From the NCBI GenBank assembly GCA_038062955.1, contig JBBTWE010000001.1, positions 554,271-618,270 on the forward strand: a DNA stretch of 64,000 nt, read 5' to 3'. The translations under genes and the position numbers were made by a program. This document shows positions 21,563 through 63,575 of the stretch, piece after piece. Under the pieces are notes generated by a model that worked only from the letters and a program-made list of their open reading frames with translations, had not been told where the DNA came from and ran no database searches. Source of the DNA: Patescibacteria group bacterium. Its GTDB lineage: Bacteria; Patescibacteriota; Minisyncoccia; Phycocordibacterales; BOKC01. Within the stretch, counting starts at the first letter, position 1. Each line of letters starts with the position of its first letter.

Positions 21563-21682
21563 AAACTCCATATTTGGCCAATTTCTTTGCTAAAACCTCC
21601 GCTTCTCACTCGCCGTATCATTAAATACGTCTCGTTTCGATGCTCAGTTTTATCAAACAACTTGTCTCAAATCTGGAAGTTT
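21563..21682. mobile_element. MITE-like mosaic element (family with GAACTTTCAGATTYG termini)
   Basis: Terminal inverted repeats AAACTCCATATTTGGCC / CAAATCTGGAAGTTT. Internal ACGTATTTAATGATACG-type palindrome module. Confidence 0.5.
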
Positions 21683-21834
21683 ATAATTTATAAGAAAGTT
21701 TTATATGAAAAAAGCTTTTAGAAGCTAGGTAAGAAGCATATCAAAAGCCCGAAAGAAGTCAAGAATGAGGGAGGAGGAAAGTTATAATGTTAAAAGTCCC
21801 TTATAAATAAAAAATGAGCAGTGGAATGGTTACC

Positions 21835-22195
21835 ACCGCTCTCGGTCAGCTTGGGATGTCTCACCCTTTCGCTGGGGTAGCTTGCATACCCGTGGATTTC
21901 TCCACCTGTTGTTTTCCTAATCCCCTACAATAGCAAGAATAGGACGCTAATGAAACATTCCTCGGGGGAACAACAGCAATTCCACACGCGGTCTGCGTTT
22001 CTGTACCTACTGGTCTGGAGGTCTCCACGCATATAGTTTTACCGAGAAATGCCGCTTCCACTAACCCGCTCGGAGAGCCTTCTTTTGTTCGCCTAGAAGG
22101 AATCCGTAGGAAGCCCGGAGGCCAGATTTCAGGCGATGATGGTACTGATTGTTGCACCTCCTTTTAAAAGGTTCATCCATTCAGAGTATACCATA
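21835..22195 (-). ncRNA. Candidate structured RNA of unknown identity (GC-rich, no ORF)
   Basis: About 360 nt at about 50% GC inside an AT-rich operon. No plausible ORF on either strand. GNRA-closed hairpins on the minus strand (GTGGA-GAAA-TCCAC, CTGTTGTT...AACAACAG). Loose resemblance to RNase P P10-P12 segments but no P4/CR-I/CR-V, so not called RNase P. Confidence 0.3.
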
Positions 22196-22247
22196 ATAGA
22201 AATCGCCCTACTCAAAAGATATACATTGCGTGGCTAAAAACAAGAGG

Positions 22248-22796
22248 CTATTTAGCAATCTTCTTAAAAGGAAAACCAAGATAATCAAAGAATGATTTGG
22301 CTTCGTCTTTGTTGCGGGCAGTTGTAACAATTGTGATTGCAAGTCCAAAAACGTCTTTTAGATCTTCATCGGAAGTTTCCGGGAAAATAGTATGCTCTTT
22401 TATGCCGATAGTTAAATTACCAATCTCATCCAAAGATTTTGGTGAAAGTCCTCTAAAATCTTTTGATCGTGGCAAAGAAACATTTAATAATCGGTCCAAA
22501 AAATCAAACATTTTCGCTCCCCGAAGAGTTACTTGATATCCAACAACATCCCCTTCTCGAGACTTAAAGCTAGCAATAGAAATTTTAGCAGGACGTGGAG
22601 AAGGTTTTTGTCCTGTAATTTTTGCTAAACGGTCAGCAACCAGCTCAACTTTCTTTTTATCTTTGATAGAGCCAACACCAACGTTTAAAACCACTTTTAA
22701 AACTTTAGGAACCTGCATAGGATTTTTATATCCACTTATTCCTTTAAAATCCTTAAAAGATTTTTCTAATTTTTCTTTAACTAGTATTGTTGTCAT
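22248..22796 (-). CDS. rplE: 50S ribosomal protein L5
   Basis: Sequence. Confidence 0.9.
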   Translation of the reverse strand: MTTILVKEKLEKSFKDFKGISGYKNPMQVPKVLKVVLNVGVGSIKDKKKVELVADRLAKITGQKPSPRPAKISIASFKSREGDVVGYQVTLRGAKMFDFLDRLLNVSLPRSKDFRGLSPKSLDEIGNLTIGIKEHTIFPETSDEDLKDVFGLAITIVTTARNKDEAKSFFDYLGFPFKKIAK

Positions 22797-22823
22797 GATT
22801 TTAGATATTAGGTAGAACTCGGT

Positions 22824-23042
22824 CTATTTTTTCAGTTTAACATTGGAAACATGTATTGGCATGCTCTTATCGACTAATTGACCCTTTTCTCCGCTCTTCC
22901 GAGGTCTTTGGTGGAATTTATTTATATTTAAACCAGAAACAATAAGCTTATCCGCTTTTGGAAAAACTTTTGTAACTTGCCCGGTTTTACTTTTATCTTT
23001 ACCGGCAATTATTGTAACTTCGTCTCCTTTTTTTATTTTCAT
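22824..23042 (-). CDS. rplX: 50S ribosomal protein L24
   Basis: MKIKKGDEVTIIAGKDK... Start trimmed from the track ORF (23144) to 23042. Confidence 0.85.
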   Translation of the reverse strand: MKIKKGDEVTIIAGKDKSKTGQVTKVFPKADKLIVSGLNINKFHQRPRKSGEKGQLVDKSMPIHVSNVKLKK

Positions 23043-23046
23043 AATT

Positions 23047-23418
23047 TTATACAACCTCTGGCGCCAGGGAAATAATCTTTTGGAACCCTCGCTCTGCCAA
23101 CTCTCTAGGTATTGGTCCGAACACACGTCCAGCCAAAGGCTCATCTTTATCTTTTTCCAGAATCACTACGGCATTATCATCAAAACGAATATAAGAACCA
23201 TCTTCTCTTCTGAATGGGGCTTTTTGTCTTACAACCACTGCTCGCAAAACATCCTTTTTCTTTACTCTTTTTCGAGGTTCAGCTTTTTGAACGGATAACA
23301 CCAAAATATCACCGATACGAGCATATCGTCTCATAGATCCTCCAAGCACCTTGAAAACTCTACCGATTTTGGCACCGGAATTATCTGCAATATTCACAAT
23401 GGATCTAGGTTGTAACAT
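23047..23418 (-). CDS. rplN: 50S ribosomal protein L14
   Basis: MLQPRSIVNIADNSGAK... Confidence 0.9.
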   Translation of the reverse strand: MLQPRSIVNIADNSGAKIGRVFKVLGGSMRRYARIGDILVLSVQKAEPRKRVKKKDVLRAVVVRQKAPFRREDGSYIRFDDNAVVILEKDKDEPLAGRVFGPIPRELAERGFQKIISLAPEVV

Positions 23419-23424
23419 ATTTTT

Positions 23425-23676
23425 TTAAGCTACTACTTTGAAATGCTTGTCTTTTGATAATGGGCGACATTCTTCGATTGTAACTTGAGCGCCTATTTTA
23501 TGGAGATTTCCAGCATCATGAGCCTTATACCTTTTTTTCTCTTTTATATACTTACCATATTTTCCATGTTTAACAAACCTTTGCACAGCAACTACCACAG
23601 TGTCTTTCATTTTGTCTGACACGACAATTCCTTTGAGTTTTTTTGGTCTGCTAATGTTTTTATTTGTAGATTCCAT
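23425..23676 (-). CDS. rpsQ: 30S ribosomal protein S17
   Basis: Sequence and order. Confidence 0.9.
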   Translation of the reverse strand: MESTNKNISRPKKLKGIVVSDKMKDTVVVAVQRFVKHGKYGKYIKEKKRYKAHDAGNLHKIGAQVTIEECRPLSKDKHFKVVA

Positions 23677-23723
23677 ATTTTTTCTTAACTATTTGTTTTT
23701 ATTTTTTCTTCCTTTTCTAAATC

Positions 23724-23743
23724 CCTGCCTGCCGGCAGGCAGG
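23724..23743. repeat. Perfect 20-bp palindrome CCTGCCTGCCGGCAGGCAGG
   Basis: Identical palindrome inside MITE copies at about 46082 and about 51812. Confidence 0.7.
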
Positions 23744-23935
23744 TTAAATCTTTTGTGAGCTGTTTAAGGCTGTTAAAATTCTGGCAATTTCTTTCTTGAG
23801 TTTCTTTCCTTCTTTTACATCCCTGGTTTTGCTGCCCGAAATACCAAAATGGAAATTACGGATATTTTCCTTCTTTTCTTTGAAAAGATTAATCAATTCT
23901 GTCTTATTTTTGGTTTTAAAATCAGTCTTTTTCAT
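23744..23935 (-). CDS. rpmC: 50S ribosomal protein L29
   Basis: 63 aa, order L16-L29-S17. Confidence 0.85.
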   Translation of the reverse strand: MKKTDFKTKNKTELINLFKEKKENIRNFHFGISGSKTRDVKEGKKLKKEIARILTALNSSQKI

Positions 23936-24026
23936 AGATTTACGATTTACGATATAAGATTTATGATTTTCGGTTATAAATTCTATTTTTTCTGTCTTAC
24001 AAATCTGAAATCTTACATCTGATATC

Positions 24027-24446: not shown

Positions 24447-24485
24447 GATAAAAATTTAAGATATACGATTTAAGATTTATGATTT

Positions 24486-25157: not shown

Positions 25158-25177
25158 TTTAATTTAAGATATAAGAT

Positions 25178-28572: not shown

Positions 28573-28629
28573 ATTTTTAATTTATTATTTCTTGTTAGAA
28601 CTTTCAGATTTGAGATTTTAGATTACAAT

Positions 28630-29253: not shown

Positions 29254-29360
29254 ATCGGCTATAAAAGTTATATATGTCTGCAGCAGATTATAAGTTTTCA
29301 CGCTATAAGTCAATGACTTAGGGCAAATTTACAGAAGGTCATCAATAATCTCTGTTTCTA

Positions 29361-29482
29361 AAACTTTCAGATTTGAGTGCAGTACTAGGCGCGAGCGAGG
29401 AGCGAACCGAGGCCTATTTGGCAATAGGACGAGGGAGCACCGGAGCAAAGTAACGACGTAATGCACTAAATGTGGAAGTTTT
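29361..29482. mobile_element. MITE-like element (same family), abutting rpsJ stop
   Basis: TIR AAACTTTCAGATTTGAG / AAATGTGGAAGTTTT. Internal core is the reverse complement of the core at 36855-36976. Confidence 0.55.
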
Positions 29483-29861
29483 AGATAATTTTGACATCTA
29501 TATCAACCCCTGAAGGCAAACTCATATTCGTAAGCGATTCGATAATCGCAGGCGCCGGGTTAATGATATCTATCAGTCTTTTGTGCACCCTCATTTCAAA
29601 CTGCTCTCTTGCGTTCTTATAAACGAAAGCCGCCCTGTTAACAGTGTACTTTTTTATTTCTGTTGGGAGAGGGATCGGCCCCAACACTTTGGCATCAAAC
29701 CGAAGAGCTGTGTCGATTATTTGTTTAACCGATAAATCTAATACTTTATATTCATAAGCTCTCACTCGGATGCGAAGCTTGGTGATAGCATTCAAGCCTC
29801 CAGCATTTTTTATGGATGCAGCTTTGGTTTTTTTTGTCGTTACTTTTTTAGTGGTAGGCAT
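29481..29861 (-). CDS. rpsJ: 30S ribosomal protein S10 (N-terminal Lys-rich extension)
   Basis: GPIPLPT...HKRLIDI motifs. Confidence 0.9.
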   Translation of the reverse strand: MPTTKKVTTKKTKAASIKNAGGLNAITKLRIRVRAYEYKVLDLSVKQIIDTALRFDAKVLGPIPLPTEIKKYTVNRAAFVYKNAREQFEMRVHKRLIDIINPAPAIIESLTNMSLPSGVDIDVKII

Positions 29862-31100: not shown

Positions 31101-31108
31101 AGTGTTAT

Positions 31109-31261
31109 AACTTTCACATTTGGCCAATTACTTTGCTAAAATCTGCGCTTCGATGCTGATTTCTACATCATAGAAATCATGTCGGAAGATTTTTTATCAC
31201 GAAGTGATATAAAATTTCTGACTCAGTTTTATCAAAGAACTTGTCTCAAATCTGGAAGTTC
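31109..31261. mobile_element. MITE-like element immediately upstream of tuf
   Basis: TIR AACTTTCACATTTGGCC / CAAATCTGGAAGTTC. Contains the GAAATCATGTCGGAAGATTTTTTATCACGAAGTGATATAAAATTTC module shared with 50371 and 62280. Confidence 0.55.
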
Positions 31262-31394
31262 TAAGTTATTAGTAAATAATTATTAAAATTTTATCAAAAT
31301 TTAAATCAAATTGATTATTTTTGCTTACATACAAAAACAAAAATAGCGCAAAAGCGTTATCTGACATATTAACAAACATAATAAAAGAGTCAAC

Positions 31395-31459
31395 CCCGTA
31401 GTAGATTTTGGCATAGCAACTTCGTTGCGACAGCAACAATGCCAAAATCTACTACGGGG
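31395..31459. repeat. Long hairpin repeat (family B): CCCCGTAGTAGATTTTGGCAT ... ATGCCAAAATCTACTACGGGG
   Basis: Perfect 21-bp arms. Homologous copy at 63245-63301. The CTACTACGGG motif recurs at 9292, 36493, 54370 and 54466. Confidence 0.7.
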
Positions 31460-36615: not shown

Positions 36616-36855
36616 ATGAGAGTCTGTCCAATAACAAATAAAAAAACAATTGTCGGCGGGGGTTACAGTAACAGAACTCGTGCTACCCAGTTTAATCCAA
36701 CTGGTAAAAGAACCAAAAAACCTAATATCCAAAGAAAAAGGATCTATATTCCTGAACTCAAAAAAACTATTTCTATAAATATTTCAACTAAAGGCCTCCG
36801 AACTATCAATAAGAACGGGGCCTACATCACCCTCAAAAAAGCCGGCATCATATAG
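36616..36855 (+). CDS. rpmB: 50S ribosomal protein L28
   Basis: MRVCPITNKKTIVGG... Confidence 0.85.
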   Translation: MRVCPITNKKTIVGGGYSNRTRATQFNPTGKRTKKPNIQRKRIYIPELKKTISINISTKGLRTINKNGAYITLKKAGII

Positions 36856-36976
36856 AACTTGTAATTTTGACGCAACTTCGTCGTTACTTCGCTCCGGTGC
36901 TCCCTCGTCCTATTTATTAATAGGCCTCAGTTCGCTCCTCACTCGCGCCTAGAATTGCATCCAAAATTACAAGTTC
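36855..36976. mobile_element. MITE-like element with perfect 15-bp TIR (GAACTTGTAATTTTG / CAAAATTACAAGTTC)
   Basis: Abuts rpmB stop. Internal sequence is the reverse complement of the 29361 copy's core. Confidence 0.6.
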
Positions 36977-37015
36977 TAAGGAAAAAGAAGGCCTCTGCAG
37001 TAAAGCGAGGTTTTT

Positions 37016-38048: not shown

Positions 38049-39563
38049 TTGCCTTTTAACTTTACTTTTATGAAACGTCCCTCTAATTGGGTCCTAGGCT
38101 TCATCTCCGCATTTATTATCGGAGTATTCATTCAATCTTTCCTAAATTTCACAGGTCTTTATCTTTTTTTTCTCGAACTAGCCTTAATATTTGGGGGAAT
38201 TTCACTTCTCCATTTCTTTCAAAAAAATAGAATCTCTCTCACTTTTGGTTTTTTAACACTAATACTTATCGCTTCCTCTTTAGGGATTCTTAGAACAGAA
38301 AAAGTTCTATTACCAAAAGATAATCTAGAAAAATCTCGTGATACTGGAGAAATTATAACCTTTATCGGAACTATCGTAGAAGAACCTGACATAAGAGACA
38401 CCAACATAAAATACACCGTTTTAGTTGAAGAAATTGATGAGAGAATCTTAATTACTGCTAAAATTTTTCCAGAGTTAGAGTACAAAGATAGAATAAAGTT
38501 GTCTGGAAAATTAGAAACACCGAAAGAATTCCCAGAATTTAACTATCGAGAATTCTTAATTAAAGACAAAATACACACCGTTTTATACGATCCAGAAATT
38601 GAGTTAATCGAAAAAAAGAATTTTTCTTTTTATCAAAAAATTCTAGACATTAAAAATATTTTAAGACGCTCCACAGAAAAAATTCTGCCTTATCCATACA
38701 GTGAAATTTTAAAAGCGATGATGCTCGGCGATACCAGTTCTCTTCCTCAAGATGTAAAAGATATTTATAAAAATGTTGGTTTAAGCCATATTCTGGCAAT
38801 TTCCGGAAGTCACATCACTATAATTGCCGGAATTTTATTTTCTCTCTTAAACCTTACTAGATTTAGAAAAAAATCTTTTTACATAATTTTGAGCGTGCTC
38901 ATTTTCTATATCGTACTAATCGGGTATCCTGCTTCCGCGGTAAGAGCTGGTATTATGGCCGGAATTTTACTCTTGGGTGAAAAATTAAAACGGCCTTACT
39001 TTATAGAAAGAGGTCTTTTGGTCGCAGCCTTTTTAATGCTTATAATAAATCCTTTGTTCTTACGATACGACATTGGATTTCAGTTATCTTTTCTCGCAGT
39101 TCTAGGCATATCGCAAACCCAAAATATTTTTAAAGATTTTTTCAATAAATTTTTCCGAGGAAAATTACTGTGGTTTCAGGATGTTTTGGCGATCACTTTG
39201 GCTGCTCAAATCTACACTTTACCACTTGTTATATATAACTTTGGTTTCTTTTCTTTATTCTCTCCTCTGGTCAACATTCTAGTTGTTCCAACCTTGCCGA
39301 TGCTCACAATTTTGAGTTTTATCGCGATCTTTGCCGGCGTAATCTGGAGTTTCTTGGGAATTCTCCTTGCTCTGCCTGTTTATCTAATTCTGGTTTACAT
39401 ACAAAAAATAAGTATCTTTTTCGGAAGCATTCATTTAAATTCAATAACAATAGAATCTTTGAGCTTCTTTTGGGTGATTATTCTTTACCTCGTTATTGGA
39501 CTAACAGTCTGGCGTCTCAAAAAGCGGAATAAACGTGCATTACAAAACTCGTCTAATCAATAG
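38049..39563 (+). CDS. comEC: ComEC/Rec2 competence channel domain protein (DUF4131 plus competence domain, no MBL domain)
   Basis: 504 aa polytopic. Competence-domain motifs (LGDTSSLP..., LSHILAISGSHITI). Confidence 0.75.
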   Translation: MPFNFTFMKRPSNWVLGFISAFIIGVFIQSFLNFTGLYLFFLELALIFGGISLLHFFQKNRISLTFGFLTLILIASSLGILRTEKVLLPKDNLEKSRDTGEIITFIGTIVEEPDIRDTNIKYTVLVEEIDERILITAKIFPELEYKDRIKLSGKLETPKEFPEFNYREFLIKDKIHTVLYDPEIELIEKKNFSFYQKILDIKNILRRSTEKILPYPYSEILKAMMLGDTSSLPQDVKDIYKNVGLSHILAISGSHITIIAGILFSLLNLTRFRKKSFYIILSVLIFYIVLIGYPASAVRAGIMAGILLLGEKLKRPYFIERGLLVAAFLMLIINPLFLRYDIGFQLSFLAVLGISQTQNIFKDFFNKFFRGKLLWFQDVLAITLAAQIYTLPLVIYNFGFFSLFSPLVNILVVPTLPMLTILSFIAIFAGVIWSFLGILLALPVYLILVYIQKISIFFGSIHLNSITIESLSFFWVIILYLVIGLTVWRLKKRNKRALQNSSNQ

Positions 39564-39589
39564 TTTTTGAGAGACATTGCGGAGGCGAG

Positions 39590-39720
39590 TCAGAAATTTT
39601 ATATCACGAAGTGATATAAAATCTTCCGACATGATTTCTGTAGTGCAAATCGCGTCGTAAATTTTACACAACTACGTTGTGAAAAATCTTCCGACGTGAT
39701 TTCTGTAGTGCAGAAATCAC
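39590..39720. repeat. Two inverted-orientation copies of the ATCACGAAGTGATATAAAAT / CCGACATGATTTCTGTAGTGCA modules
   Basis: Shared with MITE internal modules (31161, 50455, 62366) and with 19981. Confidence 0.6.
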
Positions 39721-40460
39721 CACCCCTTAAGAACTTCTCTTTCTTCCTCCTGATTCGCAACTTTTTTAAACTTAGCCCCTTTAACCCCCAAAACTATTCT
39801 TTTGCATTCATCCCAAGTCTTATGAGTCATTATTTTTCCATCAACCTTACTTAGATAATATCCAATTTTCGGGGCACGAGATTTTGATTTCTTTTTTAAC
39901 GCAGTTTTAATCTTAATATCGAAAATATCTTTAATTTTATAATCTTTAAAATCGCCAGAAAAAAGTTCGGGAATTTTACCTTCTGCAAAACCCCCAGCAA
40001 TTTCATCTACTCTTTCATTACCCGGAATTCCACTATGACCGGCGACATGTATCCATTCCACGGGTCGGATTTTGGTTTGCTCTAAAAGCTCCTCCCACAA
40101 ATCTTTATTTAAAACCGGCTCTTTATTCATCGTAACCCAATTGCGCCTCTCCCATGAGAAGACCCATTTGGTAATGCCGTTTATAACATAACTTGAATCA
40201 GTGTGGACTTTGATAGAATGCCGCGTCGCCAAATTAGACGCATGCAATAATTCTAAACCTTTTATCGCAGCCATAAGTTCCATTCGGTTATTGGTAGTAT
40301 GCTTCTCTCTCCCACCCACTTCTTTCACTGTGTAATCATTTTCTTTTGGAATCAAAACAACTGCCCCATAACCTCCTGGCCCAGGATTACCTAATGACGC
40401 ACCATCAGCAAAAATAACAATACTATCTGAACTATTTTGAATATTTTTTTTCTTAATCAT
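39717..40460 (-). CDS. rnhA: Ribonuclease HI with C-terminal hybrid-binding-domain-like extension
   Basis: RNase H catalytic residues (FADGASLGNPG..., TNNRMEL, HTDS, HSG..NE.VD). C-terminal YYLSKVDGKIMTHKTWDECKRIVLGVKGAKFKKV resembles the HBD/caulimovirus-viroplasmin motif normally N-terminal in RNase H1. Track start 40535 lies in a repeat, so trimmed to ATG 40460. Confidence 0.75.
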   Translation of the reverse strand: MIKKKNIQNSSDSIVIFADGASLGNPGPGGYGAVVLIPKENDYTVKEVGGREKHTTNNRMELMAAIKGLELLHASNLATRHSIKVHTDSSYVINGITKWVFSWERRNWVTMNKEPVLNKDLWEELLEQTKIRPVEWIHVAGHSGIPGNERVDEIAGGFAEGKIPELFSGDFKDYKIKDIFDIKIKTALKKKSKSRAPKIGYYLSKVDGKIMTHKTWDECKRIVLGVKGAKFKKVANQEEEREVLKGW

Positions 40461-40474
40461 AAATTTCTTTGAAT

Positions 40475-40595
40475 TACAAAACTCGTCGAAATCATAGTTT
40501 TTGAGAGACATTGCGCAGGCTGGCGAGCCGAGCATAGCAAAAATCTAGCAAGATTTTATGCGCGTCTATCAAAAACTTATGATGAGAAAGGGTTT
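40475..40595. repeat. Dispersed repeat family D
   Basis: Near-identical to 62478-62630 except that the latter carries a 32-bp insert also present at 5540-5570. Partial copy at 39555-39583. Confidence 0.7.
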
Positions 40596-40611
40596 TGTAA
40601 TTCAAGGTAAT

Positions 40612-42324
40612 TTATAAAAATACGTCGATAATCCTCAACCTTAATTCTTTTCTTCCTCCAAAAGAAGATTTTTCGAGCGAAGCTACCAGATTCACTTTAG
40701 CATCTGGAAGCAGGAGCCCCAACTTATCTGTACTTACAAAAAAACAAATTCCTTTTACTCTTGTGCCTTTTAAGCCTAGTTCCAAATGATTTTTCTGCTT
40801 TCCAAAAATCTTAACATACCCCACCTCTGCCTGCTCAATTAAAAAAATCGGTTTGGGATTGCTCATTCCAAAGGGGGCGAGCTTATCAATCAAATCAAAT
40901 GTCTTCCAAGTAAGATCGGTGAGAGATAATTTTTCATCTATCGGTGTTTTTGCTCTTTCTCTTCCAGAGGAAGCTTCCTCGGCACAAATTGATTCGTAAG
41001 ATTTCAAAATTGCTTCTGGGAGTGTATGTATTTTTTCAAAAGAAACAGAAAATCCTCCAGCCGCTTTGTGTCCCCCAAATTGCAAAAATTCTCCCGAAAT
41101 TCTCTCCATTATAGCGAGCGTGTTTATCTTTCCATCCCCCCTACATGATCCTTTAATAATTTCCTCCCCATCACGGCCCCAGAGAAACACTGGTTTGCAA
41201 AAATCTTCCACCAAAGAGCCTGCGACTAGCCCCAAAAGAGACGGTCGCCACTTTGGGTTCCCAAGCACTATAACTTTTTCGAAACGCCCAGTATCTTCTT
41301 TGATTCTTGCTCTAACTTCTTTGGCCATTCCTGCGACCACCCCTTTCCTCTCATCATTTATTTTATTTAAAATGTCAGTCTTTTCCCAAGCAATTGTTTC
41401 ATCTGTCGTGGATAAAAGGTGGAAAGCGTCCCGAGGGTTCCCCATCCGACTTGCGGCATTTATCCGGGGCGTGATCATAAATCCAATATCATCTTCAGAT
41501 GCCGAAGATTGATTCACTCCAACTTTTCGAAACAGTCGCTTGAGCCCAGGACGACGAGATTTTCGCAGGACCTTAAGCCCAAAATAAGCCAAAATTCTGT
41601 TTTCACCCAAAAGTGGAACCATATCTGAAAGTGTTGCGAGCCCGGCCATATCGAGAAACCATTTTTCGGCACCCTCTTTCCAAGGAAAAACTTTTTGACC
41701 TGATGCAAGTACTCCTTGGACCAATTTAAAAGCTGTAGCGGCCCCGCAAATCATTGTAAAAGGATATTTAGAGTCTGGATGTTTGGGATTTATAACTGCG
41801 AACGCCTCCGGCAATTTTGTTTTTGGCTCATGATGGTCAGTGATAATCACATCGATGCCAGAATCCTGGGCCATTCTCACTTGCTCTATGTCCGCAATCC
41901 CGCAATCAATCGTGATAATTAATTTGACCTCATCTTTGGAAAAATTTTCAATCGCTTTGAGATGGAATCCGAACCCTTCTAAATGTCGGTCTGGAATATA
42001 GTTGGTAAAATTCTCGTGCCCTGCCGCCCTAAAAAAATCATGGAGAATTACCGCGCCAGGAATTCCGTCAGCATCATAATCGCTATAAATAACTATTTTT
42101 TCTTTCTTTTCGATCGCTTGGAGAATTCTTTTAACCGCCTTTTCCATATCAGCGAGCAAATACGGGTCATGCAAACTGGCATAATCAGGATTTAAAAAAG
42201 TTTCGATTTCTTTTTTTTCCGTAATACCTCGGATGGAAAGCAATTTTCTAAGTAATGGAGATAAATTATCCTCTTTTAAATTATTGGATGTAAAGACATC
42301 GGTATTTAAGGAGTATTTATCCAT
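40612..42324 (-). CDS. recJ: Single-stranded-DNA-specific exonuclease RecJ
   Basis: DHH (ITDHHEP) and DHHA1 motifs, 570 aa. Confidence 0.85.
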   Translation of the reverse strand: MDKYSLNTDVFTSNNLKEDNLSPLLRKLLSIRGITEKKEIETFLNPDYASLHDPYLLADMEKAVKRILQAIEKKEKIVIYSDYDADGIPGAVILHDFFRAAGHENFTNYIPDRHLEGFGFHLKAIENFSKDEVKLIITIDCGIADIEQVRMAQDSGIDVIITDHHEPKTKLPEAFAVINPKHPDSKYPFTMICGAATAFKLVQGVLASGQKVFPWKEGAEKWFLDMAGLATLSDMVPLLGENRILAYFGLKVLRKSRRPGLKRLFRKVGVNQSSASEDDIGFMITPRINAASRMGNPRDAFHLLSTTDETIAWEKTDILNKINDERKGVVAGMAKEVRARIKEDTGRFEKVIVLGNPKWRPSLLGLVAGSLVEDFCKPVFLWGRDGEEIIKGSCRGDGKINTLAIMERISGEFLQFGGHKAAGGFSVSFEKIHTLPEAILKSYESICAEEASSGRERAKTPIDEKLSLTDLTWKTFDLIDKLAPFGMSNPKPIFLIEQAEVGYVKIFGKQKNHLELGLKGTRVKGICFFVSTDKLGLLLPDAKVNLVASLEKSSFGGRKELRLRIIDVFL

Positions 42325-45986: not shown

Positions 45987-46066
45987 ATGAGTTTAGGTTA
46001 ACTTCGTAACTTACGGAATATTTTAGCACGTTTTTATAGTTATTGAAGAAAAAATAGAGAATATTA

Positions 46067-46208
46067 AAACTTTCAGATTCCTGCCTGCCGGCAGGCAGGT
46101 GAGACAAGTTTTTTAATAAAACCGAGCACCGAAACGAGACGTATTACCTATACGATGAAGTGAGGCGCGGAGGTTTTAGTAAAAAAATTGGCCAAATATG
46201 GAAGTTCT
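46067..46208. mobile_element. MITE-like element abutting a pilin-like gene stop
   Basis: TIR AAACTTTCAGATTC / CCAAATATGGAAGTTC. Contains the 20-bp CCTGCCTGCCGGCAGGCAGG palindrome and a GACGTATTACCTATACG module. Confidence 0.55.
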
Positions 46209-47751
46209 AAAGCTCTTCCCAAGAAATGGTGGAATACTGATCCGATGTAAGTGGAAAACTAGGCGGTGGACCAAACAATAGATTGGCGTCATAAACAATA
46301 TTCCTTGTGCAGTAACCACTACCTATATTTCCGATTGTTCCTCCACAGTTCCAATTAGATCCAGTGTAGGTAAAACCGTATCGCTGACTAGTTGCAATCA
46401 TGCCGTACAAATTGATTTGTTGTCTATGATAACTGCTACTACAACTAGTATTGTAATAGTAACGCCCAACCCTTCCACTTTGAGCAATTAATGCGGCATC
46501 AATATCTAGAGAATCGGCGCTATAAAGACCGATGTTTATATTATTTTGTGCAATTAAAGCAATAACATCGGTTCCGTTAGTATTCGTATAATTTAAACTA
46601 TCAGTCATTGTGATACTGGTCCTGGTTGCCGCCACATCCGGAAATCTACCCGAAGCAACCGTAACTCTATCTCCGTTTATAGTACCTGAAACCCAAGCAT
46701 GATCTTCAACAAAAATTAAACCGTTCGAGGGAATTTGGTAAGTTCCGATTAAGGTTGTAGATCCTCCGGTTGTGCCGATACTCCAAGTTCCCCAACCTAT
46801 CTGGGTGTCGGTAGCAGGTGGAGCTGGCGCTGCTGGTTTAGTGCATCCACCAGGTGGGTTTCTTAATGTGTTGATTCTATAAATTGAAAAAGTATCCGTC
46901 CCATTTGAAACTGGATTAAAAACTATTCTATATCCAAGCCCGCCAGACGCGGCAAAATAACGCCCGGAAGATTGAGCGCTAGCCTTAATTTGAGCTAGAT
47001 CAGTTGTAAGCCCGACGAAATCCACTGCTGGCACTGGAAATTGCCGGCCGGCTTCAAAAACGTCAGGACGATATGGCACAGGAGTTGTTGGTGGCGCTTC
47101 ATTTGGTCGAAAAGTATCATTTATACCTGTTCCCGGAGGAGCGTTCACATGAGTATGCACACCAAATTCATTTCCACCAGCATGATCTGGATCGTCATAA
47201 TCCGATCGAGCACTTGAGATTATGTTGTGAGATAGACCATCAAATCGAATACCGCCATTTGAATGTATCTGACCAAAAATTTCCGTACCAGCACCAAAAC
47301 GCATATCGCTATTCGAAACAAAAGCATATTTTGCTAAAGATGGAATAGCGAGTCTGGTGCGAATTGTTCTTTGTATCGAAAGATCTTCTACCACAGTACC
47401 TGTAGATTCAATTGTAACAATGGTCGAACCTGATAGCGGAGGTGTAATTGAGAGTGAGAAAGTGCCAATTTTAACACCGTTTTTATCATTAAAATCGTGG
47501 ATGTAAGGGCCGGGATTCCCTGTTCCATCTGTGAAGTCTTGGGGGTCGTGTGCCAAATGCCAACGGTAATAATCAACACCGGCTTCAGCAATTTGAATAG
47601 ATTTTTCTCTTAAAATTGATCTTTTTGCTAATTTTATATTTGCTCCGCTCCAAGAAGAAAGCCCTCCTATGATTAAAACCGCCAAGGCGGCAAATATCAC
47701 TGTTTGGACGAGCATGAAACCTGAATTAGCATTAGAATTAAAAGTTTTCAT
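46207..47751 (-). CDS. Large type IV pilin-like (pseudopilin / minor pilin) protein
   Basis: Class III signal NSG|FMLVQTVIFAALAVLIIGG, then a 480-aa Gly/Thr/Ser-rich beta-rich domain. Confidence 0.65.
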   Translation of the reverse strand: MKTFNSNANSGFMLVQTVIFAALAVLIIGGLSSWSGANIKLAKRSILREKSIQIAEAGVDYYRWHLAHDPQDFTDGTGNPGPYIHDFNDKNGVKIGTFSLSITPPLSGSTIVTIESTGTVVEDLSIQRTIRTRLAIPSLAKYAFVSNSDMRFGAGTEIFGQIHSNGGIRFDGLSHNIISSARSDYDDPDHAGGNEFGVHTHVNAPPGTGINDTFRPNEAPPTTPVPYRPDVFEAGRQFPVPAVDFVGLTTDLAQIKASAQSSGRYFAASGGLGYRIVFNPVSNGTDTFSIYRINTLRNPPGGCTKPAAPAPPATDTQIGWGTWSIGTTGGSTTLIGTYQIPSNGLIFVEDHAWVSGTINGDRVTVASGRFPDVAATRTSITMTDSLNYTNTNGTDVIALIAQNNINIGLYSADSLDIDAALIAQSGRVGRYYYNTSCSSSYHRQQINLYGMIATSQRYGFTYTGSNWNCGGTIGNIGSGYCTRNIVYDANLLFGPPPSFPLTSDQYSTISWEEL

Positions 47752-50341: not shown

Positions 50342-50370
50342 TTAAAATATTTTAACTCAACCAAATTTTA

Positions 50371-50549
50371 GAACTCTCAAATTCGGTGCATACCTTTGTT
50401 ACTTCGCTCCGAGAGCCTCCCTCAACGTATTATTAAATACGTCTCGTTATGGTTCACCATAGAAATCATGTCGGAAGATTTTTTATCACGAAGTGATATA
50501 AAATTTCCGACTCGCTCGTACCTCGGTCTGCATCCGAATTTGAGAGTTC
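50371..50549. mobile_element. MITE-like element between pilin gene and pilC
   Basis: TIR GAACTCTCAAATTCGGTGCA / TGCATCCGAATTTGAGAGTTC (20 bp, one mismatch). Modules: CGCTCCGAGAGCCTCCCTCAACGTATTATTAAATACGTCTCG, and GAAATCATGTCGGAAGATTTTTTATCACGAAGTGATATAAAATTTCCGACTC. Confidence 0.65.
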
Positions 50550-50552
50550 TAA

Positions 50553-51776: not shown

Positions 51777-51798
51777 GTTTGTTGCTTAAATTTTTGTA

Positions 51799-51874
51799 GA
51801 ACTTTCAGATTCCTGCCTGCCGGCAGGCAGGTGAGACAAGTTTTAGTAAAAAAATTGGCCGAATCTGGAAGTTC
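51799..51874. mobile_element. Short MITE-like element between pilC and pilB
   Basis: TIR GAACTTTCAGATTC / GAATCTGGAAGTTC enclosing the CCTGCCTGCCGGCAGGCAGG palindrome. Confidence 0.55.
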
Positions 51875-51875
51875 T

Positions 51876-53624
51876 TTACTCTGATACTACTCTAAGTATC
51901 TCCTCAAGCGTCGTAAGCCCCTGAACCGCTTTAAAAACACCGTCTTCAATCATTGTAATCATACCTTCTTCTTTGGCTTGTTTCTCAATAATTTTATCAG
52001 CTTTTTCTTGAAGAATCAGTTCTTTTATCGCGGGTGATACTTTCAAAATTTCATAAATTCCCATTCTACCGGAGTAACCATCTTCAGAATCTTCAGTTAT
52101 TTTGGGTTTGTAAAAAGGGATTTTGTCCCACTCTGCACCAGGAGGAACTATTGATTCCATCTTTAAAAACTTGAGAACTCTTTTTAGATCCACCGCTTTG
52201 CTTAAAGTATCAAGTTCTTCTTTTTTGAGAAAATATTTTTCTTTTTTTTCAGTAAGTTTTCTCACCAACCTCTGCCCAATGATAACATTCACGGTAGAAA
52301 CTATTAAGAATGGCTCCGCTTTCATATCAATAAGTCTTGGGATAGCGCCAGCCGCTGAATTGGTGTGGAGGGTCGATAAAACCAAGTGCCCAGTGAGAGA
52401 CGCATTTATGGCAAGAGAAGCGGTTTCATTGTCTCTAATTTCTCCCACCATAATAATATCGGGGTCTTGTCGGACCAGAGCTCTTAGTCCGTTTGAAAAT
52501 GTGAGTCCAATTTCAGGCTTAACTTGAGTTTGGTTGACTCGGTTTATCTGATATTCAACTGGGTCCTCAATCGTGGAAATATTCACTCTCGGCACATTCA
52601 GAATCTCAAGAACCGTGTAAAGTGTGGTGGTTTTCCCTGATCCTGTTGGGCCAGTAGTCAAAATCATTCCTGTAGTAGCTCGAGTAGCGCTATGAAGTTT
52701 TTCCAGGCCTTCTCCATGAAAACCGAGAGCTTCTAATGTAAACCCAGAGGCATCTTCCCGTAGTAATCGCATAACCGCTTTTTCACCAAAATATATTGGC
52801 AATGTTGAAACACGAAAAGAAACCTTTTCGCCGTTCATATCTATTTTAAACCTCCCGTCTTGCGGCAATCTTTTCTCATCAAGTTTTAGATTAGACAAAA
52901 CCTTTATGCGAGCAATTATACTTAGAGCGACATTTTTAGGGAGAATCATAGCATCTCGCAGAATTCCATCAATGCGATACCTTACCACGACTTTTTCTTC
53001 TGTTGGTTCAATATGAATATCGGAAGCATTTTGGATAATCGCATGTTTTAGCAAAGTGTCGACTATTCTGACAACAGGCAAATCTTCCGCGAGTTTTTTA
53101 AGATCACTTCCTGAAAGATCTTCCTGCCCTTCTGGAATAGATTTCAAAGAAACTGCTTCTTTTTGAATAATATCTCCGAACTCCGCTCTTAAACTTTTTT
53201 GATACTGCAGTAAAACGCTTTTTATTGATTCAGCATCTGTTAACCTAGGAAGAATCCGAAGCGCAACTTTTTTCCTTACAAAATCAATAGCTGACAAATC
53301 AGTTGAGTCGAGCATAGCGACCTCAAGAAAATCTGGCCCTTTCTTAAAAGCGATAATGTTGTGGTTACGAGCAACTGGCTCCGGAATAAGTGACAATATT
53401 TCAAAATCTATTTTTTGATTCTTTAAATCAACAAAAGGGATACCGAGGATCATTGCTTGAACCCGTCGGAGTTCATTCTGATCAATCTTACCCTTACGAA
53501 GAAGCACTTTCTCTAAGTTTTCATTCTTTTCCAGAGATTCTTTTTCCACTTCCTTAAAATCTTTTAAGGAAATTAAACCTGAATCTATAATGAATTCTTT
53601 GAGTTGTTGATCAGTAACTTGCAT
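51876..53624 (-). CDS. pilB: Type IV pilus assembly ATPase PilB/GspE
   Basis: Walker A GPTGSGKTTTLY, Asp/His boxes, N-terminal GSPII domain. Confidence 0.9.
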   Translation of the reverse strand: MQVTDQQLKEFIIDSGLISLKDFKEVEKESLEKNENLEKVLLRKGKIDQNELRRVQAMILGIPFVDLKNQKIDFEILSLIPEPVARNHNIIAFKKGPDFLEVAMLDSTDLSAIDFVRKKVALRILPRLTDAESIKSVLLQYQKSLRAEFGDIIQKEAVSLKSIPEGQEDLSGSDLKKLAEDLPVVRIVDTLLKHAIIQNASDIHIEPTEEKVVVRYRIDGILRDAMILPKNVALSIIARIKVLSNLKLDEKRLPQDGRFKIDMNGEKVSFRVSTLPIYFGEKAVMRLLREDASGFTLEALGFHGEGLEKLHSATRATTGMILTTGPTGSGKTTTLYTVLEILNVPRVNISTIEDPVEYQINRVNQTQVKPEIGLTFSNGLRALVRQDPDIIMVGEIRDNETASLAINASLTGHLVLSTLHTNSAAGAIPRLIDMKAEPFLIVSTVNVIIGQRLVRKLTEKKEKYFLKKEELDTLSKAVDLKRVLKFLKMESIVPPGAEWDKIPFYKPKITEDSEDGYSGRMGIYEILKVSPAIKELILQEKADKIIEKQAKEEGMITMIEDGVFKAVQGLTTLEEILRVVSE

Positions 53625-53767: not shown

Positions 53768-54365
53768 TTATTCTGGAAGTTGAGCTGGAAACAGAAACTC
53801 GCAGCAAACCACAAAGGCAGTAACTGGTACTGATTCTTGACATGTTACGCTCCACTCGTCATCACCTACTGGTTCTGAAATTTCAATTGAAGAATTTGGG
53901 CATGATCCTCCACCTCCAGTTCTCGCTTTTGGCAAACTTCCACATTCAGCGGTAACACTACCAACACCACTAGCACTTCCTGTGGTGCAAGACAGACTAG
54001 AAGCGACAAGGCTAGTTGACCATCCAAGAGTTCCTTCGTTGTCAGTAGCCACCAAAGCCTTGCCGGTCGAAGGAGAACCGCTGGTTATTTTTAGAGTACC
54101 TCCAATTTCAAAGTTGCTGTTAATAAACCCCCCTCCAGTAGAACCTAAAAATCCTCCCCAAAAAGAATCGATTACATTGAATTTGCCAAGTTTAGTCTGT
54201 TCAGAACTCCCCGCATTTATTGGAGCTTCAACGTTTCCACCAAAAGGAGCGGCGGTTGGTCCTGTCCAACCATATACAATACTTATTCCAGCACTCAATA
54301 TAACGGCGAGTGCAATAATTTTTGCAGTTGTGAGATATTTATTGATTTTTTTTGTTAATTTCATC
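53768..54365 (-). CDS. Secreted/anchored Gly/Ser/Thr-rich hypothetical protein
   Basis: Start MKLTKKINKYLTTAKIIALAVILSA (signal anchor). The 26 nt before ATG are identical to the 26 nt before rpmI ATG at 9302. Confidence 0.5.
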
Positions 54366-54475
54366 CCGTAGTGAAATTTCAGGTCGTTCCCACAGAACAC
54401 GCGAGAACTATCCTAGAAATTTGTTTATTATTTTATACCCGCAATTAGTATTTTAAACCTGAAATTCTACTACGG
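54364..54475. repeat. Inverted repeat CCCGTAGTGAAATTTCAGGT ... ACCTGAAATTCTACTACGGG flanking about 70 bp
   Basis: Family B-related. One arm doubles as the 5' leader of gene 53768-54365. Confidence 0.65.
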
Positions 54476-60122: not shown

Positions 60123-60124
60123 AA

Positions 60125-60290: not shown

Positions 60291-60479
60291 TCGAACCGAA
60301 ACACGATCTTCAAGTTTAGAAAAATTTAAAAATTATTTTTTGACTTTTTTTTTAAATTAAGATGCAAATAATTTTTAGTGGTGTTGGTTACTATTTAACT
60401 TTTTAGATGTTTCATAAGAAACTTTTTGAGTTTTTATAAATTTGAAACTTTTTGACAAAACTTTTTTATATTGGGAAAT

Positions 60480-60900: not shown

Positions 60901-60911
60901 TTTAAGATTGA

Positions 60912-61694: not shown

Positions 61695-62010
61695 TTGACC
61701 CAGTCTCAAAAATAACCTCTAGTAATAAAGTTATAAACGCTTGAACAACCAAATGTCCAAATTTCGGCAAAAAACCAAGTTTCGACAGTCACCTTACTAT
61801 AAGTAGGTTTCCTGTCTCATCCTTGATTTTTTCCTTCGAAATTTTGCCATTTGTTTAGTTCATTATTTTTGAGACTGGCTCTTAATTCTACTTTTATCTC
61901 CCAAATATTCCAAATAATCTTGACCCTTAAAAAGCCTGAATTTCTGGCTTTTATAGCCCATTGGAGCATAAGACTGGTCAAAAAAATTGTTTTATGATAA
62001 AATGGGAGCC

Positions 62011-62280
62011 ATGTTAGCTAAAACCAAAAAACAAAAAATCATCAAGCTTGTTAAAGTTCATGATACAGACACAGGATCTCCAGAGGTTCAAGTTGCAGTT
62101 TTGACCAAAAGAATTGAAGAACTATCAAAACATTTAAAGAAAAACACCACGGATAAGCATTCGAGGAGAGGGCTTTTAGGATTGGTAGCCAAAAGACAGA
62201 AACAAATGAACTATCTTCTCAAAAGTAGCCCTCGAAGATTTAATTCTTTAGTTAAAAAGTTAGAACTCAAGAAGAAGTAG
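62011..62280 (+). CDS. rpsO: 30S ribosomal protein S15
   Basis: TKKQKIIK...DTGSPEVQVA...HSRRGLLGLVAKRQKQMNYL. Confidence 0.85.
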   Translation: MLAKTKKQKIIKLVKVHDTDTGSPEVQVAVLTKRIEELSKHLKKNTTDKHSRRGLLGLVAKRQKQMNYLLKSSPRRFNSLVKKLELKKK

Positions 62281-62466
62281 AACTTTCACATTCGGCGTAT
62301 CTCTGCGTTACTTCGCTCCGAGCCTCCCTCAACGTATTATTAAATACGTCTCGGTACGGTTCTGATTTCTACACCATAGAAATCATGTCGGGAGATTTTT
62401 TATCACGAAGTGATATAAAATTTCCGACTCGCTCGCGCCTTGATCTGCATCCGAATCTGAAAGTTC
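62280..62466. mobile_element. MITE-like element overlapping rpsO stop
   Basis: TIR GAACTTTCACATTCGG / CCGAATCTGAAAGTTC. Module content near-identical to the 50371 copy. Confidence 0.65.
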
Positions 62467-62477
62467 TATAAGAAACT

Positions 62478-62630
62478 CATTGAAATCATAGTTTTTGAGA
62501 GACATTGCGCAGGTCGACAGGTTAGGTGTCGACACCTGTAGACGGGCTGGCGAGCCGAGCATAGCAAAAATCTAGCAAGATTTTATGCACGTCTATCAAA
62601 AACTTATGATGAGTAAGAGTTTCGAGATAA
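62478..62630. repeat. Family D repeat with 32-bp insert
   Basis: See 40475-40595. Insert TCGACAGGTTAGGTGTCGACACCTGTAGACGG also at 5540-5570. Confidence 0.7.
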
Positions 62631-62646
62631 GGTTAAATAAAAAATT

Positions 62647-63222
62647 ATGGCAGTCATTAAACACGCTGATCAAAAAGTAGGGGTCTTTATAGATTCTCAA
62701 AATCTCTATCATAGCGCTAAAAACTTATATAAATCTAAGGTTAATTTTGGGCAAGTTTTAAAAGATGCTGTGGCAGACAGGCTCCTAATCAGGGCCATAG
62801 CTTATGTTATAACGACAGAATCTGGCGAAGAAAAAGCTTTTTTTGAAGCTCTGGTTAAGTTAGGAATAGAGACCAAGACAAAAAATCTTCAAGTATTTTT
62901 TGGTGGCGCCAAAAAAGGGGATTGGGACGTAGGAATAGCAGTAGATGCTATAAAATTTGCTCCGAAGCTTGATACAATCATATTAGCCTCCGGAGATGGG
63001 GATTTTGTTCCTCTAGTAGAATATTTAAAAGTTAACCAAGGATGCCAAGTGGAAGTCGTTGCTTTTGGACGTTCGTCGTCAAGTCGTTTGATAGAAGCCG
63101 CAGATGATTTTACCGATTTAGATAAAAATCCTAAAAAATACTTAATTTCCCGAAATCCTGTGAGACCAGGAAAACAATCACCTAAAAATAAACCAATTCC
63201 TCCTTTAGAAATCAAAAGCTAA
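62647..63222 (+). CDS. NYN-domain (LabA-like, PIN-related) protein
   Basis: VFIDSQNLY...ILASGDGDF. Confidence 0.7.
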   Translation: MAVIKHADQKVGVFIDSQNLYHSAKNLYKSKVNFGQVLKDAVADRLLIRAIAYVITTESGEEKAFFEALVKLGIETKTKNLQVFFGGAKKGDWDVGIAVDAIKFAPKLDTIILASGDGDFVPLVEYLKVNQGCQVEVVAFGRSSSSRLIEAADDFTDLDKNPKKYLISRNPVRPGKQSPKNKPIPPLEIKS

Positions 63223-63244
63223 AGACGGGGTTGACCCCTGAGTT

Positions 63245-63301
63245 TCTTTTGGCATCGTCACATTCGCAACGGAAGTTGCTATGGCAAAATCTACTACGGG
63301 G
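63245..63301. repeat. Family B hairpin repeat copy
   Basis: TTTTGGCATCGTCACATTCGCAACGGAAGTTGCTATGGCAAAATCTACTACGGGG, homologous to 31395-31459. Confidence 0.65.
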
Positions 63302-63454
63302 TTGACTGGAACACTATAAATAATATACAATTGGGTACTAATGGTTCGCCCGCAAGGCGAGCCAAATTTTTTAGAAAAATAAGACGCAAAGCGACTATAT
63401 TTTTCTTAACCCTAAATAAGGTGTTCTAGAAATTAATCGCTTATTACAAAATTA

Positions 63455-63575
63455 GAACTTTCAGATTTGAGACAAGTTTGTTGGAAAAACTGAGCACCGA
63501 AACAAGACGTATTTAATAATACGATGAAGTGAGGAGCGGAAGTTTTTACGACAAAATTGGCCGAATGTGAAAGTT
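63455..63575. mobile_element. MITE-like element upstream of nusA
   Basis: TIR GAACTTTCAGATTTGAG / CCGAATGTGAAAGTT. GACGTATTTAATAATACG palindrome module. Confidence 0.6.

Follow-up and report, generated by a model that had tools for sequence, protein, structure and literature searches.

A probable non-autonomous mobile hairpin element at gene boundaries of Zambryskibacteria-like Parcubacteria

Introduction

What are the repeated palindromes that fill the spacers between essential genes in an ultra-small bacterial genome, and how did they come to lie there? The question is raised by a 64-kb stretch of Patescibacteria DNA (contig JBBTWE010000001.1, positions 554,271 to 618,270; hereafter the window), in which an earlier note, made from the sequence alone, described at least nine mosaic copies of an element resembling miniature inverted-repeat transposable elements (MITEs). 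Genomes of the Patescibacteria, or Candidate Phyla Radiation (CPR), are taken as examples of extreme streamlining. It is unexpected that their most conserved operon spacers (S10-spc, tuf, nusA, rpsO, and the pilus genes) should be loaded with several families of fast-turnover hairpin repeats. The account that we favor, with moderate confidence, is that of a non-coding, non-autonomous mobile element of ∼120 nt, MITE-like in behavior, carried by Zambryskibacteria-like Parcubacteria, with an architecture like that of repetitive extragenic palindromic (REP) doublets forming hairpins (REPINs). If not mobile, the family at least turns over rapidly, and it is structure-constrained.

The source organism is a Zambryskibacteria-like Parcubacterium of Hainich groundwater. 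Among named organisms, its ribosomal protein L3 is best matched by Candidatus Zambryskibacteria and by other Parcubacteria (60–68% identity); a single closer relative (93% identity) is found on a 1.4-kb contig. Hainich H43 groundwater assemblies contain stretches identical to the window. The S10-spc-secY cluster, together with tuf, fusA, rpsG, and rpsL, occupies 17–36 kb of the window on the minus strand, and type IV pilus genes lie at 46–54 kb. We compared this region with loci numbered L###, which are contigs from related genomes and metagenomes. Three of these (L002–L004) are the window strain, and a search for population polymorphism among them gave zero differences.

Results

Nine elements and a solo end lie in the window

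The 15-nt end motif GAACTTTCAGATTYG, searched with at most two mismatches, matches the window 15 times, compared with 0.77 expected, and none of 100 shuffles of the window gives as many. These matches resolve into nine element pairs and a solo arm at 28598. A covariance model (R1), trained on copies of sub-family 1 (defined below) alone, recovers all nine copies with E values from 8e-32 to 2e-4, plus one weak and divergent tenth hairpin. Motif count and R1 thus place the nine copies and the ∼28.6-kb fragment where the earlier note had put them, to within 1–2 nt at most. The elements are 76–187 nt long, have ends that are complementary and conserved over ∼27 nt, and lack coding capacity. The family is thus real: it is non-coding, has inverted ends, and is present in multiple copies. 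The open reading frames (ORFs) that overlap them are only artefactual extensions of flanking genes, as had been proposed; tuf, for example, is called from a TTG at 31127 in place of the ATG at 31101.

Sub-family 1 comprises the copies at 21561, 31106, 46065, 51797, and 63453, and sub-family 2 those at 29359, 36853, 50369, and 62278, which have a G-rich strand and a C-rich strand. The two ends of an element are called A and B, and its orientation (A→B) is that of the strand scoring better with R1. The members, remnants, and candidate member in the window are as follows.

21561–21684, minus strand (A→B): sub-family 1 element in the rpsZ leader (R1, 126 bits)
21694–21703, no strand assigned: solo-end scar GAAAGTTTTA (reverse complement TAAAACTTTC), with an element end at the same point in L029/L053
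28596–28630, plus strand: solo A-type end TAGAACTTTCAGATTTGAGATT..., a remnant in the rplC/rplD spacer (motif match)
29359–29484, plus strand: sub-family 2 element after rpsJ (R1, 81 bits on the plus strand and 18 on the minus)
31106–31263, minus strand: sub-family 1 composite before tuf (R1), carrying a nested ∼65-nt two-hairpin module
36853–36978, minus strand: sub-family 2 element after rpmB (R1), its ends altered in parallel (GAACTTGTAATTTTG / CAAAATTACAAGTTC)
46065–46209, plus strand: sub-family 1 element near pilin genes (R1), with a 20-bp palindrome inserted at 46080–46099
50369–50551, minus strand: sub-family 2 composite after pilC (R1), with a nested two-hairpin module
51797–51876, plus strand: internally deleted sub-family 1 element of 76 nt (R1), with the 20-bp palindrome at 51812–51831
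61741–61863, minus strand: candidate divergent tenth member, a 120-nt hairpin reading GAAC...GTTC (R1, 23 bits, E 0.003)
62278–62468, minus strand: sub-family 2 composite after rpsO (R1), with a nested two-hairpin module
63453–63578, plus strand: sub-family 1 element in the nusA leader (R1, 143 bits)

The candidate tenth member has a fold energy of −44 kcal/mol and is without TA flanks. The copies after rpsJ and rpmB do lie in opposite orientation, as the earlier note observed; rather than sharing one inverted core, they are inverted over the whole element (100 nt, 84% complementary).

Each element forms a single covarying hairpin

The terminal inverted repeats had been described as 14–20 bp long. 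In fact the conserved ends extend over ∼27 nt and the whole element forms one hairpin. The A end is GAACTTTCAGATTTGAGMCAAGTT, or GAACTTTCAGATTTGAGACAAGTT in sub-family 1, and the B end of sub-family 1 is GAACTTCCANATTYGGCCAATT, to which sub-family 2 has an equivalent; the outer ends read TAGAAC...GTTCTA. The A and B ends pair together with a conserved bulge and mismatches. Every window copy folds over its full length as one imperfect hairpin (z-scores −2.8 to −9.4).

An alignment of 31 copies of sub-family 1, drawn from the window, from metagenomes, and from six other genomes, gives a consensus single hairpin of 38 pairs, of which the terminal 27 nt are almost invariant. In this alignment 95.8% of paired cells can pair, compared with 88.8% in shuffles and 30–51% when the partners are slid, and 16 of the 38 pairs have changes on both sides. 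All five measures exceed all 500 shuffles; since the copies are kin, these are counts and not probabilities. Pair 47–84 is C-G in 16 copies and U-A in 11, and pair 29–103 is U-A in 14 and G-C in 9; such pairs show repeated switching between alternative base pairs. The A→B strand has 81 G·U wobbles and 14 A·C mismatches, and in single copies it folds 10–14 kcal/mol better; as this was also the strand used to predict the structure, the asymmetry is in part circular. Completion of one long hairpin is the sole constant property of the interior.

R1 matches sub-family 2 on one strand only (81 versus 18 bits and 63 versus 24 bits), so the two sub-families are homologous and have a common polarity. 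In sub-family 2, the end bearing CAGATT corresponds to A and the end bearing CAYATT to B. Interior covariation, this homology with its common polarity, and the rule described next, by which one end faces a gene, are points that the first reading missed. The elements have no match in Rfam 15 at gathering score or E ≤ 1.

The B end faces gene boundaries

We scored the distance of each end from neighboring ORFs in 77 elements from the window and the compared loci, with identical sequences dropped; the ORF calls behind the counts are simple, and some sites that are orthologous between related genomes enter more than once. Metagenome loci had been gathered through the A-end pattern, with no bias on the sequence past the B end. 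Of the 77 elements, 67 have the B end at an ORF boundary and 11 the A end; the median distances to the ORF are 3 nt for B and 73 nt for A. The B-end contacts divide into 43 at a stop codon and 24 before a start codon. At stops, the commonest form is one in which the flanking TA and the first base of the element make the stop codon; at starts, the ATG commonly lies 5 nt past the TA. Most elements lie between tandem genes, 34 with B toward the upstream stop and A toward the downstream start, and 22 reversed. The rule is also kept in the distant genomes L005, L008, L009, L011, L012, and L013.

The window contains both forms, and the proposal that the elements abut stop and start codons is borne out at the sites listed. 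The rpsJ stop codon consists of the flanking TA and the first base of the B end of the 29359 element, and the rpmB stop (TA plus G, 36853 element) and the rpsO stop (TAG, from TA and the G of the 62278 element) are likewise completed by a B end. The B end of the 46065 element is flush with the stop of a 514-amino-acid gene that adjoins the pilin genes and has no Pfam match, and that of the 51797 element is 1 nt from the pilB stop. Before starts, the B-end TA is 5 nt ahead of the ATG in both tuf (31106 element) and nusA (63453 element), and in rpsZ the B end of the 21561 element lies 10 nt upstream of the ATG. The 50369 element breaks the rule, with its A end 1–3 nt from the pilC stop.

An asymmetric target sequence was considered as the cause of this polarity and rejected, as the flanks are roughly symmetric (T-TA-A). 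A constant transcribed or replication strand was rejected as well, as the stop and start contexts read opposite strands: transcription runs B→A through an element that follows a stop and A→B through one that precedes a start. Two features may have a bearing on the rule. At conserved positions the B end differs from the A end in having GGAAG instead of GAAAG ∼10 nt before the ATG. The terminal base of the element tends to be C or T at stop sites, where it restores TAG or TAA, and A at start sites. Both the placement rule and the host group appear to be new for this kind of element.

Copies are gained, lost, and replaced among relatives

TA is present on both flanks in 48 of 76 elements and on one flank in 54–56, far above the TA dinucleotide frequency, which is consistent with target duplication. 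The B-end pattern was run on a genome collection and the A-end pattern, independently, on metagenome contigs. The latter found 43 copies on 38 Joint Genome Institute (JGI) and Hainich metagenome contigs, mostly 119–120 nt long and 85–95% alike. They fall into three sub-types of the sub-terminal stem, which differ by paired changes, and some are composites with the 65-nt module at one fixed internal point. The B-end pattern found eight copies in other Parcubacteria metagenome-assembled genomes (MAGs), with full elements in a Baikal Zambryskibacteria MAG (two contigs) and in five further MAGs. These five are recorded as "uncultured Candidatus Saccharibacteria," which is a record label only; the ribosomal protein genes of L013 align to the window at 66–70%. 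The MAG copies keep the ends nearly letter for letter around interiors that are different yet self-complementary. R1 gives 68 matches across 398 kb of related loci. The earlier note had considered that the terminal repeats might occur only in this window, or that the spacers might be ancestral and conserved. Copies in metagenome contigs and other Parcubacteria genomes dispose of the former. As to the latter, L016 and L019 (∼68% identity in L3 protein), which have complete S10-spc operons with short spacers, contain no end motif and no R1 match, and syntenic relatives of 75–90% nucleotide identity differ copy by copy, as listed here.

tuf, upstream: window, sub-family 1 composite with a 33-nt deletion; L042, orthologous copy of 186 nt
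nusA, upstream: window, sub-family 1; L028/L039, orthologous copy of another sub-type
rpsO, downstream: window, sub-family 2 composite and a ∼160-nt element; L039, neither, with a spacer of 53 nt
rpsJ/rplC: window, sub-family 2; L042, none; L015, B-end fragment
rpsZ, upstream: window, sub-family 1 and an older scar; L029/L053, sub-family 2; L042, none
rplC/rplD: window, solo end only; L042 and L049, full sub-family 2 copies
pilC, downstream: window, sub-family 2; L030 and L050, sub-family 1 at the identical point (...TC/TAACTAGATAG)
pilB/pilC: window, 76-nt sub-family 1; L050, none
46065 site: window, sub-family 1; L050 and L029, none
rpsC, upstream: window, none; L049, sub-family 1, 5 nt before the ATG; L042, none
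site in L050 outside the coverage of the window: L050, 188-nt copy; L030, scar TAGAAAGTTTTA

These filled, empty, scarred, and replaced sites indicate that the elements were inserted and lost and are not ancestral; copies are gained and lost over 10–25% sequence divergence. A copy can decay through loss of internal sequence between short repeats, as in the 31106 element, where 33 nt are deleted between GAAGCG repeats, or through collapse to a solo-end scar. The L030 scar TAGAAAGTTTTA is the product expected from deletion between the GAA of the two ends. Copies also exchange interiors or are replaced at the same site.

In L029/L053, the rpsZ-rpsH cluster follows PGK-TIM and not rplE, which breaks the spc operon. 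The junction holds three elements and a conserved non-coding stretch that is described below.

Other small palindromes are nested within the elements

The earlier note attributed the mosaic look of the copies to different combinations of internal palindromic modules. Such palindromes are present; as solo copies exist, they are separate elements nested within the family and not parts of it, and the mosaic look is explained by the invasion of these other small palindromic elements. Their solo copies are listed below.

39586–39719, plus strand: tandem pair of the ∼65-nt two-hairpin module, at 39586 and 39651 (also nested in the 31106, 50369, and 62278 elements)
7665–7735 and 19969–20019, strand not stated: solo ∼65-nt two-hairpin modules (sequence comparison)
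23724–23743, no strand assigned: solo 20-bp palindrome CCTGCCTGCCGGCAGGCAGG (also nested in the 46065 and 51797 elements)

L050, in which the ORFs for RNase H and ComEC overlap, lacks the spacer that the tandem pair occupies at 39.6 kb. The 20-bp palindrome sits at the same point of the 46065 and 51797 elements, inserted without duplication, and the two elements are 91% identical across the insertion. This common point and identity indicate that the composite was copied within the genome after the palindrome had entered.

The two-hairpin module itself consists of GTCAGAAATTTTATATCAC...GTGATATAAAATCTTCCGAC plus TGATTTCTG...CAGAAATCA, and its stems vary among copies by paired changes.

Elements probably lie within transcripts

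The suggestion that the elements double as terminators or promoters is not supported. None of the nine is overlapped by a terminator-like site (a G+C-rich stem with a run of T after it), and matches to the −35/−10 sigma-70 hexamers are at background (43 versus 35.8 expected, and 45 versus 45.4 expected), with two overlapping elements. Promoter-like sites of the form TTGACT-N16–18-TAnnnT lie beyond the A end instead, at ∼100 nt for tuf and nusA and at ∼50 nt for rpsZ (63302–63331 upstream of the nusA element, and 21762–21735 behind the rpsZ element). These positions place the tuf, nusA, and rpsZ copies in 5′ leaders, and the elements are likely to be co-transcribed with essential genes as long RNA hairpins.

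The tuf and nusA leaders are alike beyond the element as well. A 36-nt block, 97% identical at 31388–31423 (tuf) and 63272–63307 (nusA), ends in a −35-like TTGACT, and the nusA leader has a terminator-like hairpin at 63342–63364.

Search for a mobilizing enzyme

As the earlier note stated, there is no transposase in the window: none of the window ORFs checked has a transposase or integrase domain. Its further step, mobilization by a transposase in trans, would be one reading of this absence, and no autonomous partner was found. A Pfam scan of 10 selected ORFs from related loci revealed RAYT (REP-associated tyrosine transposase), reverse transcriptase, integrase, and GIY-YIG domains and no DDE transposase. 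The only transposase-type genes seen on element-bearing contigs are two RAYT-like Y1_Tnp genes, at 8848–9531 of L043 (motif search and Pfam) and 761–1435 of L025 (Pfam), and RAYT homologs are very common in Parcubacteria (1393 matches at E ≤ 1e-10). An Xer-type integrase lies on the element-bearing contig L040, with no specific link to the elements.

Several candidates were set aside. The end pairs that came up as possible autonomous copies, such as one in L050 that spans RNase H and ComEC, were all false pairs. The L031 copy (14726–14792) seemed to be an element opening into a gene; the contig simply ends there. L021 encodes a stand-alone reverse transcriptase (RVT_1, 10220–11360) with a hairpin 17 nt past its stop. 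That hairpin has a sub-family 2 interior and other ends (GTTTTCATCCAATTTTAG), and we judged the proximity of the two to be a chance neighborhood.

Discussion

Relation to known systems

TA-targeting MITEs that form long hairpins include ERIC/IRU of enterobacteria and yersiniae, Correia/NEMIS of Neisseria, and IS630-derived families such as Nezha. The elements described here are, like MITEs in general, shorter than 300 bp, non-coding, and bounded by inverted ends, in many dispersed copies with presence/absence differences. With the ERIC, Correia, and Nezha types they further have in common a length of 70–190 nt, terminal inverted repeats, TA on both flanks, and an imperfect palindrome over the whole length, together with size variants produced by extra internal segments, a location near ORF ends, and, here as a likelihood, co-transcription with neighboring genes. 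They differ in having no recognizable sequence similarity to these families, an ultra-small CPR host, and no IS630-like partner among the sequences searched, and in that the interior is replaced wholesale between genomes with pairing kept. We know of no description of a B-end-to-gene polarity, here 67 of 77, for ERIC, Correia, or IS630-derived MITE families.

The attC sites of integrons are also imperfect palindromes of similar length with conserved ends, a variable center, conserved unpaired bases, and one strand that folds better, and they also lie directly after stop codons in fixed orientation. In contrast, there is here no integron integrase, attI, or cassette array, the neighbors are core genes, and the ends do not fit the R″/R′ consensus (RYYYAAC ... 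GTTRRRY).

REPINs are REP doublets that form hairpins, with conserved ends and a hairpin-forming spacer in which compensatory changes are common (Bertels and Rainey, 2011, PMC3116915). The present family resembles them in being non-coding, intergenic, and multi-copy, with conserved ends around a spacer that is constrained in length and in hairpin formation (PMC3116915). Compensatory changes are likewise found, and the copies evolve as a within-genome population with sub-types. Unlike in REPINs, the ends are TA-flanked inverted repeats of 27 nt that lack the GTAG or CGTC tag; RAYT genes beside element-bearing DNA carry other hairpins; and one end is flush with ORF boundaries. In the sequences searched, each of the three comparisons thus fails on a defining feature: a RAYT with the same repeats (REPINs), a cognate transposase (MITEs), or an integron platform with its core sites (attC). 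The closest architecture is that of REPINs, and the closest behavior and flanks are those of TA-targeting MITEs such as ERIC and Correia. The family is of the MITE/REPIN kind, in a variant new for the Parcubacteria lineage; full-text literature searches gave no report of MITE-like repeats in CPR bacteria.

A model for insertion and its rivals

We propose that the element would integrate at TA, with duplication of the TA, by means of an enzyme supplied in trans; given the TA flanks, a transposase of the IS630/Tc1-mariner type would be the default guess. Surviving copies sit in spacers that are probably transcribed, their B end up against an ORF. Next to a stop, the TA of the stop codon would be the insertion point and the first base of the element would restore TAG or TAA; next to a start, the TA would be within the 5′ leader, ∼5 nt ahead of the ATG. 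More speculatively, hairpin and polarity may be retained because they matter for transposition, whose substrate would be a folded single strand, or for the neighboring gene, in the processing or translation of its mRNA, or on both counts. We regard as rather unlikely a bolder version, in which the mechanism itself reads gene boundaries, the folded single-stranded hairpin being integrated directionally at a stop TA or ∼5 nt before starts. If true, this would make the element a mobile "untranslated region (UTR) module" with its own stop-restoring base and start-proximal sequence, and a targeting logic undescribed for MITEs, REPINs, and attC; in ultra-small CPR genomes it would influence how essential genes are expressed.

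Several observations weigh against mobility of this kind. Ordinary cut-and-paste at a palindromic TA does not predict the orientation rule. TA is self-complementary and could belong to the inverted ends instead of being a duplication. The check for target-site duplications, which the earlier note had proposed, gave TA on both sides in the 48 of 76 elements noted above and an empty-site comparison blurred by divergence: joining the flanks of 59 elements and comparing them with all loci returned orthologous filled sites, diverged spacers, and one scar, and no clean high-identity empty site. The best empty site, at rpsC in the window and L042 relative to the filled L049, is compatible with a single TA within the limits of that divergence. 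No pair of ends 0.3–7 kb apart encloses an ORF in 473 kb of sequence, as an autonomous copy would, and both end patterns have 0 matches in viral contigs (a looser 16-nt pattern gave 108 single matches there, which we took as chance). The same spacer positions are occupied repeatedly, even before rpsZ and rpsC in the distant L013, and this recurrence could reflect site-specific recombination or conversion instead of transposition. Finally, a genome-wide number of ∼100 copies is an extrapolation from one 64-kb window.

Different enzymes, or none, might underlie the same pattern. The elements might be of the REPIN type, a folded single strand moved by a Y1 enzyme (HUH, RAYT, or IS200-like) that recognizes both ends, with the interior as a pairing spacer. 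One strand folds clearly better (G·T/G·U versus A·C), as expected of a single-strand substrate, and RAYT-like genes are both very common in Parcubacteria and present on the element-bearing L043 and L025. The link to RAYT fails, however, at the genes themselves, which counts against the preferred account as well: those in L043, L025, and L166–L170 are bracketed by their own, unrelated short hairpins (CCGGAGGTGTCACC..., CAAGGCGACACC..., GGGTCAGGTACCC...) and not by GAACTT ends (GAACTTTCAGATT-type). Moreover, the elements are without a GTAG or CGTC tag, and TA on both sides, which they have, is not a feature typical of IS200/IS605-type insertion. We consider this explanation unlikely. Less probable again is an attC-like or Xer-like site, at which a tyrosine recombinase would act on the folded hairpin and place or exchange units at gene boundaries in fixed orientation. 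Such a site would account for the fixed polarity that sets one end against stop or start codons, for the conserved bulge and mismatches within invariant ends, for the strand asymmetry, and for the re-use of a position by different sub-families, and it would fit the synteny break at an element-rich spacer in L029/L053 and the Xer-type integrase on L040. However, the neighbors are core genes in conserved order rather than cassettes, no array with one site per gene, integron integrase, or attI is present, the ends do not fit the attC R″/R′ consensus (GTTCTAA versus GTTRRRY), and XerC/D-type genes are ordinary housekeeping genes.

Least probable, by a small step, is that the elements are not mobile at all and are structured cis-regulatory or processing RNAs that have been passively duplicated, such as sites for RNase III or RNase E, or leader hairpins controlling the genes of ribosomal proteins and translation factors. 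The strong covariation and conserved unpaired bases, the placement in transcribed leaders and 3′ regions of highly expressed genes, and the recurrence before rpsZ, rpsC, and tuf in different genomes would all suit an RNA. Yet the element is read in opposite senses behind a stop (B→A) and ahead of a start (A→B), so that there is no single constant RNA; dozens of copies that are 85–95% alike lie beside unrelated genes; presence and absence vary among close relatives, with the operons of L016 and L019 empty; and Rfam has no match at E ≤ 1. Mobility of a non-autonomous, TA-flanked hairpin remains the account we prefer.

Independently of the elements, the RAYT genes with their own short G+C-rich hairpins constitute a separate REP/RAYT system in CPR genomes.

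Consequences

The polarity rule raises the question of what recognizes gene boundaries, and the start-site copies raise another: whether translation or mRNA processing is altered by a 120-nt hairpin lying 5 nt ahead of the tuf, nusA, rpsZ, or rpsC start codon, in hosts that seem poor in Shine-Dalgarno pairing. With frozen ends and a covarying interior, the dozens of natural variants should be useful to separate RNA-level from DNA-level constraint. In practical terms, such repeats extend ORF calls artefactually, coincide with at least one synteny break, and probably break metagenome assemblies; the L031 copy lies at most 80 nt from the end of a 16-kb contig.

Other repeats and non-coding features of the window

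Another repeat of ∼160 nt, with inverted ends GAATTACAAAAC...GTTTTGTAATTC, occurs at 40459–40615 and 62464–62622, with a fragment at 39536–39586 and a copy in L014 at ∼7750. It is missing at the RecJ/RNase H junction of L050, its 62.5-kb copy holds a further nested hairpin with AGGTGTCGACACCT, and it has no Rfam match at gathering score or E ≤ 1. An inverted pair of 41 nt, 90% complementary, has one copy in the infC-rpmI spacer (9276–9316) and the other near a gene of unknown function (54350–54390).

Between rplE and the element upstream of rpsZ lies a non-coding stretch of ∼390 nt (21806–22200, minus strand), which is 91–93% identical in L029/L053, where the flanking genes are 78–82% identical, and is missing in L042. 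It ends in a terminator-like hairpin (21841–21816) followed by a T run, has a fold z-score of −2.6, and has no Rfam match at E ≤ 1. We regard it as a candidate new RNA gene.

Short repeats of the AAATCTTAAATC type lie directly upstream of ribosomal-protein start codons at 23938, 24454, 25155, and 34468. No Shine-Dalgarno-like sequence is visible at these starts, and L042, L050, and L016 have TTTAGGCGCTAGG-type repeats there.

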